A DNA stretch of 64,000 nucleotides from Octopus vulgaris (Eukaryota): contig OX597819.1 in the NCBI GenBank assembly GCA_951406725.2, positions 110,484,001-110,548,000 of the forward strand, read 5' to 3'. This document shows positions 3,881-58,304 of the stretch, piece by piece. The stretch's first letter is position 1. Each line of letters starts with the position of its first letter. Below the pieces are notes generated by a model that was not told the origin of the DNA, searched no databases, and was given only the letters and a program-made list of their open reading frames with translations. The position numbers were made by a program, and so were the translations under genes.

Positions 3881-4187
3881 TTAACCTAACTGACGCCATG
3901 TTGATGTTGACGTTGAAGTAGTTTGGCTGACGAACGAAATGCACGGTCGTTAGTTCGAAATTAGCCGCCGGCACCATTCGTGCCTTATCCACTGTGCCAC
4001 CGAACAGAGTGGCGCCGCCGCCGCTGTTGTTCTTCTTCTTGTTGCTGTTGTTATTGTTGTTGACGGTAAGATTGCTCTTACTATTGTTGTCGTTGGATTT
4101 GAGCTCTGGTTGTTGGTAGTTTTGTTGTTGTTGTTGCTGTTGTTGAGACGGCCATTAATTTACTGTTGGTGTTTTCCCCCTTCTTTT

Positions 4188-7490: not shown

Positions 7491-7779
7491 ATTCTTTTAC
7501 TCTTTTACTTGCTTCAGTCATTTGACTGCGGCCATGCTGGAGCATCGCCTTTAGTCGAGCAAATCGACCCCAGGACTTATTCTTTGTAAGCCTAGTACAT
7601 ATTCTATCGGTCGCTTTTGTCGAACAGCTAAGTTACGAGGACGTAAACACACCAGCATTGGTTGTCAAGCGATGGTGGGTGGGACAAACACATGTTGGCG
7701 GTGGGGAACAAACACAGAAACACAAACATATACACACACACATACGTATATATATATATATATTATATATATATATATA

Positions 7780-8455
7780 CAATATAATAAATAAAACATA
7801 TGCATACATACGTACATATATGTACATACCTACATCTATATGTATATATACATGCATATATGGGTACAGGACACCACAAATAAACGTAGAACACAACGAG
7901 AAACGAAAACATAAAACCAAACAAGGAAACGGACTTTTTTTAACAAGGAAAAAACAGAGTACAAGAAACCAACACAAGGAACATTCCCCTTCTTCAGCTG
8001 CCCCTGTTTCGACTCCATGCGTGTTTCGAAGGTAAGGGCAGAACACGATCCCGCCGAAGCGGTCCTTCCTGCAAAATGAATTAAATAAAATTCTTTTGCA
8101 GAGGGGTAAAAAAAAGTGACAAGAACAGGACGTAAAAACAATACAAATGAAGAAAAAAACAGACAGACAGGGAGGAAAGGTCAAGTAAAGAGTTAAGAGT
8201 GCGCGTCATAATTATTGAAATAAAACTTACTTGGTAGAAGGAGAAAAACGACGCGTGCGTTCGATCATATAATAACAATATAATAAATAAAACATATGCA
8301 TACGTACATACATATATGTACATACCTACATCTATATGTATATATACATGCATATATGGGTACAGAACACCACAAATAAACGTAGAACACAACGAGAAAC
8401 GAAAACATAAAACCAAACCAGGAAACGGACTTTTTTTAACAACGAAAAAACAGAG
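7780..8455 (-). mobile_element. Non-coding partial tandem repeat (496-bp unit, ~1.36 copies), PLE pseudo-LTR or retrozyme-like
   Basis: 180-bp direct repeats at 7780-7959 and 8276-8455; 3' end abuts (TA)n; contains a hammerhead-like motif. Confidence 0.75.
7988..8047 (-). ncRNA. Hammerhead-like ribozyme, non-circularly permuted strand order
   Basis: Minus strand: CGUG-UU-CUGCCC uua CCU-UC-GAAA-CACG [16 nt] GGGCAG-CUGAAGA-AGG. Stems I (6 bp), II and III all pair. Confidence 0.65.
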
Positions 8456-38959: not shown

Positions 38960-43315
<4,356 letters not shown>

Positions 43316-43384
43316 AAATATATATATATATACATATACACATACATATAGATGTATATATATGTATATATATATGTGTATGTG

Positions 43385-43590
43385 CAGTGACCGCGTGTGT
43401 ACCGATGACGATTTTTTTCCTCTGTCTTCCCTTCTCTGGATCTTTCCTTCTCCTATGTTTCCGACGAAGAGCTCCGCTCGAAACGTTAAACCCTCCTTCT
43501 TTCCTTCTTTCCTGAGCGTCCAAATAATACTATATTTGTTCCACGTCCTCGCGTTGTTGTGTTTTTTTGTGCTTTCTTGTTTGGATTAAC
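43385..43590 (+). mobile_element. PLE-type terminal repeat fragment with minimal hammerhead
   Basis: Flanked by (TA)n; 3' end shared with 23942-24033 and 41563-41628. Confidence 0.8.
43457..43491 (+). ncRNA. Minimal type I hammerhead ribozyme (U4C variant, palindromic stem III)
   Basis: GUUU-CCGACGAA-GAGC-ucc-GCUC-GAAA-CG-UU-AAAC. Confidence 0.7.
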
Positions 43591-46081: not shown

Positions 46082-46478
46082 TTTTGATTTTGATTTTTCC
46101 AGTTTCAGCTAATGAGCTGTGGCCATGCTGGGGCACCGCCATTTGGTTTGCTACACGATTTTACCTCACGGATGCTTTTTAGCAAACGCCATCTGATGCA
46201 TGAGAGAGTTCGATGCAGCTGCCCTCATCTGCACCTCCTGCCGTGAAGTTGGTTCATCCGGGACACCTGACAGGAAGAGATCCAGTCCTACTTTAAAGAC
46301 ATCCGCATCCACACTATGCAGGTCCCTCAGGTTCTTCGGGAGGATATTGAAGAGCTGTGGGCCTCTGAAGCCCAGGCTATCACAATATCTTGTCCTACAT
46401 CTTGATGGCAAATTTGGAGTCCTTGGTACTACGCAGTGGCGTCCGGTTCTGGCATTTGTGTGACTCTCGATGCCAAAA
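46082..46478 (-). mobile_element. CR1-type LINE 3' fragment
   Basis: Nearly identical peptide to the end of ORF 51155-52909; (AAAATC)n tail. Confidence 0.93.
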
Positions 46479-46677
46479 TATACTATTGAAGCACAATAAA
46501 CGACACAAATACTTGACGGTGTACATATTTAGATATAATTAATTATTAGCGACAGAAAGAGTATCGATACCGAACGGTAATAAGCATTACCTTTTGGTAT
46601 TAACACCATTTCCCACTTTAAAAATGGATGTTGTGTTAGAACACAGAATACTGCGGTAGTTGCCTTGAGAAACTCTC

Positions 46678-47056: not shown

Positions 47057-48358
47057 AGGGTGTCCACGAAGTCTGAGTACATGGAATAAAATCATAACAT
47101 AAACAAATACATATAAGAAATAACAATTTTCCCTTTTTACTTTTGTTTAAATTAAATAAATTACTTTACTTTTCTAAATTTATTTGATATTTTTTCTACA
47201 GATGATCGAATGATGGCTCTGTCTAAAGAAGAAAGAATCCCAGATCGAATGATAGATCTGTCTAAAGAAGAATCGAGTTTAGTATTATTAAATGAACGAG
47301 AGGGATGGTCTTATCGCAAAATTGCGGAAGAATTTAATCTTCGACACCCTTATAGGCAACCTATTTATTTTACTGCCGTCGGGAAATTGATCAAGAAATT
47401 TAAAGAAACAGGCAGTGTTTTGGATAAACCCCATTCCGGGCGACCAAATACTTCAGATGAAACGAAAGAGGCTGTCATGGCTAAAGTTTCTGCTAGCCCA
47501 AAGAAATCACATTCACGGTGTTAGGTGTTCCAAAACCAACCATCCACAAAATGCTGGTTGAGGAAAAGTTTCATCGATACAACCTACAGATATTGCATCA
47601 CTTAAATGAAGACGACCCTGATAGACGAATGTAGACGTGCGAATGGTTTTCAGATAAACTGGATGAAAATATCAATTTTACGAAAATCTTTGTGTTGACA
47701 AAGCTACGTTTTATGTAAATGATGAGGTCAACAGGCAGAATCTTCTATACTGGTAATCCACATTGGATGGATCCATCCAAACAGCCAGGCAGCAAAAAGG
47801 TGATGGTGTGGTGTGGCTTGTGGAAAGCTCATGTTCTAGGACCCTTCTTCGTTGAACATGTAACGGATGAGACTTATGTAAACATATTGAGAGACAAATT
47901 AATATATTAAATTGAGCGCCTAGGCGAGGGCCTTCCGAATTGGTTTCAGTAGGATGGAGCCCCTCCCATTTTGCCACAACGGTTAGAGATTGGCTTAATG
48001 ACACTTTTCCTCACTAGATTGGAAGAATGGGTCATATGGAATGGTCCCCTCGTTCACCAGACCTTTCTCCCCTTGATTTCTTTTTCTGGGGTATGTTGAA
48101 AGAGAAAATTTACTCAACAAAGATTACAGATTTAAAACACACGAGAGAACGCATTACCAGACAGTGTGCTGAAATTGATGGCAATGTAGACTTATTTAAT
48201 CAAGTTCACCTGAATTTTGCAAGGCGCATCAAATTATGCTTTGAAAATGATGGAAATCACTTTGAAAATATTATTTATTAACATTATAATTAAATAAAAT
48301 TGTTTTGTTTTAAAAGTATGTGTTAATCCCCATGTACGCAGACTTTGTGGACACCTTC
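47057..48358 (+). mobile_element. Near-full-length decayed Tc1/mariner-superfamily transposon (DD41D/rosa-like)
   Basis: ~28-bp TIRs GGTGTCCACGAAGTCTGAGTACATGG/CCATGTACGCAGACTTTGTGGACACC. Confidence 0.92.
47210..48281 (+). pseudogene. Disrupted DDD transposase
   Basis: HSGRP, KVMVWCG, WFQ*DGAP and WSPRSPDLSPLDFFFWG motifs with stops and frameshifts; about 40 residues between the second and third Asp as read. Confidence 0.9.
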
Positions 48359-51070: not shown

Positions 51071-52940
51071 GATTGATTGATTGATTCTAGTTTCAGCTCA
51101 TGAGCTGTGGCCATGCTGGGGCACCGCCATTTGGTGTTGCTACTTGGTTTTACTTCACGGAAGCTTTTTAGCAACTGCCATTTGGTGCATGAGAGAGTTC
51201 GATGCAGCTGCCCTCATCTGCACCTCCTGCCGTGAAGTTGGTTCATCTGGGACACCTGACAGGAAGAGATCCAGTTCCATTTTAAAGACATCTGCATCCA
51301 CCCCATGCAGGTCTCTCAGGTTCTTCGGGAGGATATTGAAGAGCTGTGGGCCACGGAAGCTCAGGCTATCACAGTATCTTGTCCTACATCTTGATGGCAA
51401 ATTTGGAGTCCTAGGCACCACGCAGTGGCGCCCAGTTCTGGCATTTGTGTAACTCTCGATGCCAAAGTTTGGGACACGTCCCTCCAGGATCTTCCAGATG
51501 TATATTATGGCATATCTTTCCCGCCTACGCTCCAAGGAATATAGTTTTAATCTCTTGAGTCTTTCCCAATAGCTTACATTCTGCATAGAGGCTATCTTCT
51601 TCGTGTAGCTACGCTGGATCGCCTCGAGCTCTGTGATCAACTTGACACTGGATGGTGACCATAACTGAGAGCAATAGTCAAAGTGGCTTAGGACAAGTGT
51701 CCTCCAGAGGACTATCATGGTTTCTTGTTCTCTTGTTCTAAAGGTTCTAAGAATCCATCCAGCCAGCCGTCTACATTTTATTGCCAGTTTAGCAACATGT
51801 ACATGAAAGGTCGCGTCATCACTCATGTGAATACCCAGGTCACGCACTGATTGTGCCTCTGGGATTGCAATCCCTCCGGGTCCAGTGTATTCATTGGGTG
51901 TTGCATTCAGTTTTGCATGCTGATAGTATAAAGCTTGAAAATTTTCAGCATTGAACTGCATGCTATTCTTTTCAGCCCACTTGTATATTTCGTCCAGCTC
52001 ACATTGCAGGTGCTTAGTGTCTTCAGGGTTCTGTTTTGCCTGTGAAACTTTTGTATCATCTGCATAACTTGTGATCGTGGCTCTCTGCGTGGCTGAGGGC
52101 ATGTCTGAGAGGGCCATTATGAACAGTAGTGGTCCCAAAACAGTGCCCTGCGGAACACCGCTCACTATTTGTGTGTTAATGGAAGTGGCCCCATTGGCTG
52201 CTACCACCTGACTTCTATTCTTCAGAAAGTCATGAAGCCATTCTCCCAATTTTCCAACTATGCCAAGATCACGCAGTTTGTGACATATCATTCCATGATC
52301 GACTTTATCAAAGGCCTTTGCAAAGTCGAGATATATGACTTCCACATTTGAGTGGTTGAGCAGTTGTTTCAGCACCCAGTCATAGTGTTGTAGGAGCTGA
52401 GTTAAACAGCTTTTTCCTGGTCGGAAACCATGTTGGGTGTCAGGCAGCAAGTCATTTTCTTCAAGGAAGGTGATTAGTTTCCTTCTGACTATTCGTTCCA
52501 TGACCTTGCTGGTGTGTGAGGTGAGAGAGATAGGTCTGTAGTTCTTGGCCTCTGCTCTGCTACCACCTTTATGAATAGGGCATATTTTACCTTCCTTCAG
52601 TTTTTTTGGAAGTTTGCCAGCTGCAAGGAAGCTCTGAAAGAGGATCTGCAGTGGTCTTGCTGGGACTCTCTTACATACTTTTAGGAGGATTGCCGGGAAT
52701 CCATCGGGGCCAATAGCTGATTCTGTTTTCATTTCATCTATGGCCTTTATTACATCGTCTTCCTTTATATCGATGTAATTTATCGTCGCCGCCTCTGATT
52801 TTATATCTGCAGTGGTAAAGAAGTCAGTTGGATTGGTGATTTGGAAATGCCCGAGGGGTGGAGTGAAAACACTCTTGAATTGCTCATTCAGTATTTCACT
52901 TACCCTCATTGGTTTTCCTGTGAGTGTGACATCTTTTCAA
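51070..52940 (-). mobile_element. 5'-truncated CR1-type LINE
   Basis: Open RT frame, short 3' UTR and (TCAA)n tail; APE endonuclease and ORF1 absent. Confidence 0.95.
51155..52909 (-). CDS. Non-LTR reverse transcriptase (CR1 group ORF2, C-terminal 584 aa)
   Basis: Motifs GPDG, NYRPISLTS, QHGFR, YLDFAKAFDKV, SGVPQGTVLGPLLF, YADD and RDLG; no stops. Confidence 0.93.
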   Translation of the reverse strand: MRVSEILNEQFKSVFTPPLGHFQITNPTDFFTTADIKSEAATINYIDIKEDDVIKAIDEMKTESAIGPDGFPAILLKVCKRVPARPLQILFQSFLAAGKLPKKLKEGKICPIHKGGSRAEAKNYRPISLTSHTSKVMERIVRRKLITFLEENDLLPDTQHGFRPGKSCLTQLLQHYDWVLKQLLNHSNVEVIYLDFAKAFDKVDHGMICHKLRDLGIVGKLGEWLHDFLKNRSQVVAANGATSINTQIVSGVPQGTVLGPLLFIMALSDMPSATQRATITSYADDTKVSQAKQNPEDTKHLQCELDEIYKWAEKNSMQFNAENFQALYYQHAKLNATPNEYTGPGGIAIPEAQSVRDLGIHMSDDATFHVHVAKLAIKCRRLAGWILRTFRTREQETMIVLWRTLVLSHFDYCSQLWSPSSVKLITELEAIQRSYTKKIASMQNVSYWERLKRLKLYSLERRRERYAIIYIWKILEGRVPNFGIESYTNARTGRHCVVPRTPNLPSRCRTRYCDSLSFRGPQLFNILPKNLRDLHGVDADVFKMELDLFLSGVPDEPTSRQEVQMRAAASNSLMHQMAVAKKLP

Positions 52941-55922: not shown

Positions 55923-55974
<52 letters not shown>

Positions 55975-56123
55975 AACATGTGTTCTTATATATATATGCG
56001 TGTGTATATATATATATATGTGTGTGTGGGTATATATATATACACACACATATATATATATTTATACACACACATATATATATATTTATACACACACATA
56101 TATATATATTTATACACACACAT

Positions 56124-56196
<73 letters not shown>

Positions 56197-57044
56197 TATA
56201 CACACGCATATATATATAAGAACACATGTTTATATATATATACACCTATATCTACACACGTACATATATATATATGTATGTCTGTATGTATATATATATA
56301 TATATAAGAGTTATACGTTCTTGTCCATGTTGTATTTTTCTACATACCTTAACATATATTCCAGGCGCCCCGTACCCCCCTTAACATTTATGTGAGCACA
56401 TATTCTTAATAATTGGTACGACTCTCTGTTTGTCTCTCTCTCTCTCTCATTTTTACTTGATCTGTCCCCCTCTCTCTCTTTTCTCTCTACTCATCCTCTT
56501 TTTCTCTTCTCTTTCCTCTGATTCTTTGGTCTAGTCTTCCACTACCCTCCTATTTCTTTGTCTCGCTCTGCACTCACAGGTCATTCTTCGACACCCATCC
56601 CTTCTCCTCTCTGATTCCTTCTTTCTCTCTCTTCTCTCTCTTTGTTGCGTTTGTCCCTCCTCTCTCTCTCTCTTCCTTTGCTTCTCTTTCTTTTCTTTTC
56701 CCTCTTCTCTGTCACGTGACTGTTGGCCGAAATCTGCCTTTCAGCCTCTGACCCTCGTTCTGTTAACATCGCTGTTTTCGTCCGCCACTATAAAGGCTTT
56801 TTCCATTGCGCCAGAGAAAAAATTTGTTTGCTTGTTATCAGTCGTAAGACACCGTTGTTTTCACCGTTAATGCTTCTGTATTTCATGTTTCTGTATTCCA
56901 TTATTGTTTTTTGTTTTTTTATATCTGTCCCTTTTGCTGTCCTGGTGTTCGTATGCATTCGATCCTTCTTCCAGGAAATCTACGCTTCCAGCTTAGTTTT
57001 TCTAATGCTCGTTGCTTGTTTTTCTTGGAGGGCTGGCCGTGATC

Positions 57045-57107
57045 TAGTAATCTCAAGATTAATCAGCCGAAATTACTACGATGATCCGGTTCTTGACTGA
57101 AGACTGA
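57045..57107 (+). ncRNA. Hammerhead-like ribozyme, non-circularly permuted strand order (copy 1)
   Basis: UAGUAA-UC-UCAAGA uuaa UCAG-CC-GAAA-UUACUA [12 nt] UCUUGA-CUGAAGA-CUGA; stems I and III are perfect 6 bp. Confidence 0.7.
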
Positions 57108-57887
57108 GGGTTTCGAATGTCCTGTCCGTGTTTATTGTGTCGTCTTCTAAGAGTTATACGTTCTTGTCCATGTTGTATTTTTCTACATACCTTAACATAT
57201 ATTCCAGGCGCCCCGTACCCCCCTTAACATTTATGTGAGCACATATTCTTAATAATTGGTACGACTCTCTGTTTGTCTCTCTCTCTCTCTCATTTTTACT
57301 TGATCTGTCCCCCTCTCTCTCTTTTCTCTCTACTCATCCTCTTTTTCTCTTCTCTTTCCTCTGATTCTTTGGTCTAGTCTTCCACTACCCTCCTATTTCT
57401 TTGTCTCGCTCTGCACTCACAGGTCATTCTTCGACACCCATCCCTTCTCCTCTCTGATTCCTTCTTTCTCTCTCTTCTCTCTCTTTGTTGCGTTTGTCCC
57501 TCCTCTCTCTCTCTCTTCCTTTGCTTCTCTTTCTTTTCTTTTCCCTCTTCTCTGTCACGTGACTGTTGGCCGAAATCTGCCTTTCAGCCTCTGACCCTCG
57601 TTCTGTTAACATCGCTGTTTTCGTCCGCCACTATAAAGGCTTTTTCCATTGCGCCAGAGAAAAAATTTGTTTGCTTGTTATCAGTCGTAAGACACCGTTG
57701 TTTTCACCGTTAATGCTTCTGTATTTCATGTTTCTGTATTCCATTATTGTTTTTTGTTTTTTTATATCTGTCCCTTTTGCTGTCCTGGTGTTCGTATGCA
57801 TTCGATCCTTCTTCCAGGAAATCTACGCTTCCAGCTTAGTTTTTCTAATGCTCGTTGCTTGTTTTTCTTGGAGGGCTGGCCGTGATC

Positions 57888-57950
57888 TAGTAATCTCAAG
57901 ATTAATCAGCCGAAATTACTACGATGATCCGGTTCTTGACTGAAGACTGA
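57888..57950 (+). ncRNA. Hammerhead-like ribozyme, non-circularly permuted strand order (copy 2)
   Basis: Identical to 57045-57107. Confidence 0.7.
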
Positions 57951-58034
57951 GGGTTTCGAATGTCCTGTCCGTGTTTATTGTGTCGTCTTCTAAGAGTTAT
58001 ACGTTCTTGTCCATGTTGTATTTTTCTACATACC

Positions 58035-58074
<40 letters not shown>

Positions 58075-58304
58075 TGTGTATAGAGAGTTGAAACATTCCT
58101 GTCAACCTGAGACCTTGAAGACTCCTTAAATGCAAGAAAGTATACTAGTCCCTTAATATTTGATATTCAATATTTCATCTATACAATAAGGCAATCAATA
58201 CTTCATTTCATTTTACTATATATACTATTTATACTATATATTCTATATTCTACATTAATATCATAAAGAATATAAATAAAACATAAAAAACAGAGTTGGA
58301 ATTC

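Follow-up and report, generated by a model that had tools for sequence, protein, structure and literature searches.

The (TA)n-embedded tandem array

We analysed a 64,000-nucleotide window of the Octopus vulgaris genome (assembly GCA_951406725.2, contig OX597819.1, positions 110,484,001 to 110,548,000 of the forward strand; coordinates below are those of the window), in which a non-coding array of 843-bp units, each with a predicted hammerhead ribozyme core, lies between (TA)n tracts. A scan covering every period between 100 and 1,199 delineated, at 56305..58038 of the plus strand, a head-to-tail array with a period of 843 and 2.057 copies, and one exact 891-base run at this period starting at 56305 places the array end at 58038. 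The period is above the limit of 500 in Tandem Repeats Finder, which leaves the array outside the reach of that program. Counted from the 3′ end, the array consists of two identical units, A and B, and a third, truncated piece (Table 1), with a 5′ boundary that can be fixed only to within 2 bases, since the unit begins with TA. Both array ends directly adjoin (TA)n. Past the end point, the unit reads CATATAT and the flank TATATAT, one base apart, and this likeness is possibly a microhomology used for priming. Within the microsatellite 5′ flank, a stretch of ~50 bp is present twice in inverted orientation, at about 55960-56020 and 56190-56245, stopping about 60 bp short of the insertion; this pair may be a host fold-back or may be linked to the insertion.

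The longest stop-free frame of the unit is 126 aa and its longest ATG-initiated open reading frame (ORF) is 76 aa, and the two longest stop-free frames matched none of the Pfam families, ruling out a protein-coding unit. The first-pass annotation of this DNA, which had described 2.06 identical 843-bp units with (TA)n on both sides and no credible ORF, is thus borne out in all three respects. The plus strand is rich in pyrimidines (86% C+T at 56420-56710, a stretch that recurs at +843), and is followed by the palindrome GTCACGTGAC and by TATAAA, which we take to be an E-box and a TATA box, respectively; as judged from these letters, 56711..56794 is a possible candidate for an internal promoter. 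No further copy of the 843-bp unit was found elsewhere in the window, and patterns from the unit gave no match in metagenome_contigs (two patterns), viral_contigs, or genome_contigs.

Table 1. Coordinates of the array, the predicted ribozymes and the second element in the window
Feature	Position	Strand	Remarks
5′ flank, TA-rich microsatellite tract ending in (TA)n	56142..56304		TA common to flank and insertion start
Third piece, 5′-truncated, 48 bp	56305-56352	+
Unit B	56353-57195	+	identical to unit A
Unit A (counted from 3′ end)	57196-58038	+
3′ flank, (TA)n	58039..58071
Palindrome GTCACGTGAC	56711-56720	+	sequence only
TATAAA	56789-56794	+	sequence only
Helix X, 5′ strand	56955..56968	+	pairs with 57106-57110 and 57113-57120; 13 bp, small internal loop
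Outer hairpin Y, 10 bp	56969..57030	+	56969-56978 with 57021-57030; directly precedes G10.1
Base lacking in both units	57017/57018 and 57860/57861		in hairpin Y loop, no stem touched
Stem II	57031..57068	+	57031-57036 with 57063-57068; G10.1 (57031) pairs with C11.1 (57068)
Stem III	57045..57078	+	57045-57051 with 57072-57078; 7 Watson-Crick pairs, A15.1-U16.1
C17	57052	+	predicted cut 57052/57053
Stem I	57053..57096	+	57053-57058 with 57091-57096; 6 Watson-Crick pairs; linker UUAAU after 5′ strand
G12-A13-A14	57069-57071	+
CUGAAGA (C3-A9), ribozyme 1	57097..57103	+
Helix X, 3′ strand	57106..57120	+	contains UUCGAAUG, resembling a GAAA half-core in the ordinary reading
Ribozyme 2 (ribozyme 1 at +843)	57798..57963	+	G10.1 57874, C17 57895, G12 57912, C3 57940
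RNA monomer, cut to cut, 843 nt (inferred)	57053..57895	+
Second split-core element	7769-8455	−	G10.1 8068, position 17 at 8042, G12 8027, C3 7997

A predicted split hammerhead core in each unit

A scan for all six strand orders identified in each unit a full hammerhead core in the order cleavage site, GAAA, and CUGANGA (SGC), with canonical core bases; SGC was the only order to give stems of at least 5 bp in the unit. Stems I (6 bp) and III (7 bp) of this core are composed entirely of Watson-Crick pairs, with C17 at 57052 and 57895. When the unit was shuffled 5,000 times, no shuffle attained a 6-bp stem I together with a 7-bp stem III in any order, and seven of the 5,000 attained 5/5 bp. Related contigs from the sequencing runs described below mostly share the region of about 57892-57946, in which GAAA precedes CUGAAGA.

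The departure from a known hammerhead lies in stem II. A stem II strand placed directly after A9 has a length of zero with the bases before G12, and with the best direct alternative (4 bp, −2.0 kcal/mol), two C remain before G12, and a related variant no longer permits it. Stem II can instead be formed with a strand located upstream of the cleavage site (5 Watson-Crick pairs and 1 GU; duplex, −8.3 kcal/mol, versus −2.0 for the direct alternative), supplying the G10.1-C11.1 pair. Helix X joins the bases before hairpin Y to the bases two nucleotides past A9, and the eight letters UUCGAAUG in its 3′ strand are kept in a related variant (loose end behind 57946). The catalytic strand is thus predicted to be opened between A9 and G10.1 and to be bridged by the outer helices X and Y. 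An unconstrained fold of 56950-57125 yields X (pair probabilities, 0.63-1.0 over the 12 pairs scored), Y (0.72-1.0), and stem II, and 2 of 300 shuffles fold equally well; stem III, with a probability of 0.4, appears only as an alternative because it crosses stem II. At the place where type-SGC hammerheads have a far-side helix linking the strands of stems I and II, we tested 57037-57042 with 57083-57089: a short helix with tandem GA/GA would extend stem III there and connect these strands, with a probability of at most 0.13. The full descriptor with the upstream stem II had three matches in the window (the two units, and 8042 on the minus strand) versus none in 200 block-shuffled windows.

The hammerhead-like motif that the first-pass annotation had noticed in each unit was given without coordinates, and was taken here as CUGAAGA...GAAU-GUC (57097-57121) in the ordinary strand order. 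A complete core is indeed present once per unit, as is CUGANGA (57097 and 57940), but the ordinary-order reading proved to be at chance level: CUGANGA followed 7-17 nt later by GAA occurred in 18% of 2,000 unit shuffles, and 197 of 200 shuffles of 57075-57165 folded as stably. That this site is a minimal type I hammerhead acting as a dimer is scarcely credible. CUGAAGA followed 11 nt on by GAA and then by UGUC does come near to the minimal pattern of Penelope-like elements (PLEs), but GAAU-GUC stands in place of GAAA, and A15.1, the G10.1-C11.1 pair, and stem I are missing; moreover, a related variant reads UGAC there, which is not a NUH site, and the letters in question pair instead as helix X with probabilities of 0.9-1.0. 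The version with CUGANGA followed by GAAA in ordinary order is absent from the unit. Types II and III and a long-range stem I formed via the junction sequence (by eye) were likewise rejected, none attaining 5/5-bp stems. Rfam gave no match at gathering score in the whole window; between 56200 and 58200 it listed 26 at E ≤ 10, none of them a hammerhead, all far below the gathering score, and 24 on TA tracts.

The same wiring in a second element and in Naiad 3′ ends

The third match of the descriptor belongs to a second non-coding element on the minus strand, with a period of 496 bp, 191 bp of which are repeated at 96% (about 1.4 copies), and ending in a TA-rich tract. Its stems (I, 8 bp; II, 5 bp; III, 5 bp; Y, 8 bp; X, 5 bp) differ in their letters from the 843-bp unit in all five helices, and the two elements have no real sequence similarity (best E, 1.1). 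This element also permits a weaker direct stem II of 4 bp.

We also judged by eye nine consensus 3′ ends of Naiad PLEs from the supplement of PMC8557442, six of which were named via the order of the metadata. The full split-core wiring, with other stem letters, was seen in four of the nine (Obim, Ovul, Amil, and Movir-2), of which Obim and Ovul are close relatives. In all four, the G10.1-C11.1 pair is supplied from upstream. The linker UUAAU is common to the 843-bp unit, Amil, and Movir-2, and the distance from the cut to the end is 121 nt in Obim and 126 nt in Amil versus 143 nt in the unit. Among the others, Esco shows stems I and III only, Smim has the ordinary order, and no wiring was found in the inspected part of the 3′ ends of Omin, CGi, and Mcor. 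Two exact motifs of the unit did not occur in this supplement. Judged by eye, the 3′ end preceding Naiad_Lpol (Naiad_Smim by metadata order) appears to hold a hammerhead in ordinary order whose stem II is long, so that Naiads may use more than one ribozyme wiring.

The family in sequencing runs

The unit or part of it was present in 20 of the 24 sequencing runs listed, with 19 of the 24 containing half or more of its words; the holders represent nine studies and three organism labels, and only two are on record as RNA. Contigs or reads of four runs (X1, X2, X19, and X23) were aligned to 57196-58140; run X20, with a share of 0.17, does not enter these results. Run X2 yielded 1,931 contigs (716 at ≥99% identity, 424 at 95-99%, 613 at 90-95%, and 178 below 90%), a spread that indicates a multi-variant family with young members. 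Across the ribozyme core, the summed contig depth reaches 2.0 million, up from about 0.1-0.4 million. Position A57918 is G in 72% of the summed depth (109 contigs), and the consensus of loose ends before 57892 (10 contigs; agreement, 0.82) has C at the partner position 57891; taken together, stem III pair 15.4/16.4 changes from U-A to C-G.

Run X1 (RNA by the guess of the tool) provided one 874-nt contig with a depth of 3.3 and no substitution. Its 30-nt end overlap, which can be read as one below the 31-letter word length, and a 119-nt unaligned gap that equals the head-to-tail junction close it into an 844-nt cycle, showing that the 843/844 period exists beyond this assembly. Run X19, recorded as RNA under another organism label, contains two contigs on the unit body. 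An extra base (G, less often A) after 57860 is found in 99.6% of the X2 summed depth and in the X1 contig, and is absent from both units of the window. Such a shared missing base may be expected if both units were copied from one template.

Proposed mechanism and alternatives

We favour, with reasonable though not high confidence, the view that the array derives from a non-autonomous element and is a young copy of it; the RNA of this element would cut itself once per unit, would probably become circular, and was likely copied into (TA)n by the enzymes of a Naiad-type PLE. The proposed cycle starts from the two complete cores seen in the sequence; they lie exactly one unit apart, so that cutting at both would release a monomer of 843 nt. 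A transcript, either read through or started internally, would be cut after 57052 and 57895, with the X/Y/II junction predicted to hold A9 at G10.1. The exact 843-nt monomer foreseen in the first-pass annotation is hence retained, with the predicted cuts at these two positions rather than after the GUC that follows CUGAAGA. The ends of the monomer would be kept paired by helices X, II, and III, favouring ligation, whether by the ribozyme itself or by an RtcB-type ligase as has been put forward for other animal retrozymes. A Naiad endonuclease would nick (TA)n, the target end would anneal to AUAUAU past the end point, 143 nt after the cut, and the reverse transcriptase would copy backwards over the cut site twice and halt after 2.06 rounds. 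Since the insertion ends 143 nt past the cut and starts 95 nt past the cut of the round before, its template crossed the cut site twice, whether as a circle or as an uncut multimer. A preference for (TA)n and the formation of partial tandems are both reported for Naiads (PMC8557442). The earlier link to PLEs accordingly stands as regards the shape of the insertion, whereas the ribozyme is corrected from a type I or minimal PLE hammerhead to a permuted split core pointing to the Naiad clade.

Several observations weigh against this reading. Five of the nine Naiad ends lack the full wiring. The descriptors and the folded region were picked after the motif had been seen, so that the shuffle nulls favour it, and stem I has a probability of zero in the nested fold because it crosses stems II and III, a topology beyond the model of the program. 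The same 10-contig consensus that reveals the stem III change reads GCCAG at the upstream strand of stem II, which does not pair with CAGCC unless the partner strand, not visible in these contigs, has also changed. The predicted circle is only 44% paired (z, −0.5), and 11 of 40 shuffles are as stable. Eight of nine predicted Xenopus retrozyme dimers were uncleaved in vitro (bioRxiv 10.64898/2026.07.22.740005). The X1 cycle is no proof of circular RNA or of two units, because a single 891-bp copy with a 48-bp terminal repeat would close likewise, and it is suggestive only, as a contig of DNA or read-through origin would look alike. In run X23, which has the same species label, 1,934 million letters of raw DNA contained 11 partial reads, none of them 90% alike, although other runs contain the unit in many variants; this shortfall may come from the label, the filter, or true absence. 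None of the contigs listed runs from the unit into its flank or covers both units, and the base missing from both units could alternatively reflect an assembly consensus error or a later local duplication. Cleavage, the circle, and the partner element are predictions from sequence.

Three other accounts of the array, in addition to the ordinary-order dimer considered above, have to be weighed against these data. The unit could be the 5′-truncated 3′ untranslated region (UTR) of an autonomous Naiad family outside the published set. The ribozyme would then serve that autonomous element, and re-use of the template during a single insertion would have made the tandem, neither a free monomer nor a circle being formed. 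The 3′ UTR of Naiad_Obim is about 1.0 kb by line count, so that 843 non-coding bases would fit; PLE insertions are usually 5′-truncated partial tandems (PMC8557442); the circle is poorly paired; and the rise in the summed contig depth over the ribozyme core means that many more sequences share this end than the body. We nonetheless regard this origin as unlikely, given that the same head-to-tail junction closes a one-base-different variant in X1, so that this unit length also occurs beyond the locus, that no remnant of an ORF was found in the unit, and that by eye the unit shows no likeness to the UTRs of Naiad_Obim or Naiad_Ovul beyond the ribozyme architecture. Only a slim chance is given to the possibility that element and ribozyme are real and that the insertion consisted of one 891-bp copy bearing 48-bp terminal repeats, the second unit being added later by unequal crossing-over or by the assembly. 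The 100% identity of the two units, both without a commonly carried base, would agree with such a history, as would the want of a read or contig spanning two units, and a 1.06-unit copy accounts for the X1 cycle equally well; on the other side, PLE insertion normally yields partial tandems (PMC8557442), and the second element in the window is likewise a partial tandem, with its 496-bp period.

A different kind of objection concerns function: the fold may be kept as a signal by which the Naiad enzyme binds or is positioned, while cleaving little or not at all, the insertions being copied from uncut multimers. In PMC10085705, the link between A9 and G10.1 is assumed to be uninterruptible, minimal PLE hammerheads cleave poorly in vitro (PMC4209133), the Xenopus dimers mentioned above mostly failed to cleave, and the insertion spans both cut sites, for which an uncut multimer would need no ligation step. 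This explanation is nevertheless improbable in our judgment, since both families of the window, despite their differing stems, preserve all catalytic bases, A15.1-U16.1, a non-G base at position 17, and G10.1-C11.1, and the same core bases are kept, by eye, in the four wired Naiad ends while the stems vary; an extra nucleotide at position 9/10.1 is also tolerated in PLE hammerheads (PMC4209133).

Returning to the self-cutting element, we put forward more tentatively, at somewhat less than even chances, that a split-core hammerhead outside the six block orders considered possible is the working ribozyme of Naiads and underlies its own class of retrozymes, large and poorly paired, in which the cut monomer keeps its ends together, becomes circular, and serves Naiad reverse transcriptase as a template for repeated rounds. 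The locus is a natural dimer with two intact cores. If these cleave, they would contradict both the assumed inseparability of the CUGANGA block from its stem II strand (PMC10085705) and the published view of Naiads as lacking a proper hammerhead (PMC8557442), and surveys of retrozymes based on type I descriptors would overlook a whole set of elements.

Other features of the window

A frame of 593 aa without stops at 51155-52936 on the minus strand contains an RVT_1 domain (E, 1e-29) and resembles a long interspersed nuclear element, with two related fragments at 42603-43529 and 46166-46528. A 122-aa frame on the plus strand (47156-47524) has weak matches to HTH_32 and HTH_29, and is what we take to be a likely fragment of a Tc1/mariner-type transposase. 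Isolated CTGA-GA...GAAA motifs in the ordinary order, found by motif alone, occur on the plus strand at 3927, 5202, 38822, and 44573, and are possibly remnants of minimal PLE hammerheads.

Comparison with known systems

With type-SGC hammerheads (HRIMA-1 and variants, PMC10085705), the unit shares the strand order with stems I and III, the canonical core (C3-A9, G12-A14, A15.1-U16.1, and H17), and a short linker between stems I and II. In type SGC, however, the stem II strand directly follows CUGANGA, whereas in the unit block C is not intact (direct stem II of zero length), the strand lies upstream of the cleavage site, and X and Y form the bridge. The SGC motifs of PMC10085705 came from metatranscriptomes and metagenomes; apart from one GCS candidate, that paper did not find them in known organisms' genomes. 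Hammerhead variants with additional helices are mentioned in PMC13725137, and no such passage was found in the main text of PMC10162972; the split-core wiring was not found in the literature searched, in which priority for extra core helices was not fully checked.

The unit resembles Naiad PLEs (PMC8557442) in its (TA)n target, partial tandem, and T-rich non-coding 3′ region, although the target and the tandem are common to other PLE clades and hence not diagnostic. Naiads are 3.4-4.4 kb long with an ORF for an endonuclease and reverse transcriptase (EN-RT), whereas the unit has 843 bp and contains no ORF with an N-terminal GIY-YIG endonuclease and reverse transcriptase; its stem letters also differ from those of Naiad_Obim and Naiad_Ovul. 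Naiads were reported without canonical hammerheads, and Naiad_Ovul was flagged only as HHR_half_core (PMC8557442). The non-autonomous Chlamys elements, such as MRC1 (PMC8557442), are also non-coding PLE derivatives in multicopy head-to-tail arrangement; they are green-algal and are reported to be similar to the 3′ ends of autonomous elements, and canonical hammerheads are missing from most Chlamys elements. The minimal type I hammerheads in the pseudo-long terminal repeats (pLTRs) of PLEs (PMC4209133) are similarly located near the PLE 3′ end, and a circular template has been proposed for their tandems. Their succession of CUGANGA, stem II with G10.1-C11.1, GAAA, NUH, and stem I is not that of the unit, and they lack helix III and need dimers, whereas the core of the unit has a 7-bp stem III and would act singly.

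The closest likeness in life style is to the metazoan non-LTR retrozymes (PMC7229834; bioRxiv 10.64898/2026.07.22.740005), which share with the unit the non-coding head-to-tail tandem, the PLE-like insertion, one hammerhead per unit, and a monomer predicted by double cleavage. The array is a non-coding tandem with at least two units of complete ribozyme, and belongs to a multi-copy family (1,931 contigs in X2 and 19 of 24 runs, with X23 negative). The large size, which the first-pass annotation had considered unusual for a retrozyme, does not set it apart: consensus lengths of vertebrate retrozymes are 51-972 bp (bioRxiv 10.64898/2026.07.22.740005), a range that includes 843 bp, and size and tandem shape are by themselves ordinary. 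The differences lie in the ribozyme, with the order S-G-C in place of the type I (CGS) order; in the predicted circle, which is pyrimidine-rich and, at 44% paired (z, −0.5; 40 shuffles), not highly self-paired, unlike the described retrozyme circles; and in the partner, as the unit points to the Naiad clade while the retrozymes of the preprint are tied by sequence to Xenopus PLE pLTRs. The unit would work like a non-LTR retrozyme, yet falls outside this group as presently defined.
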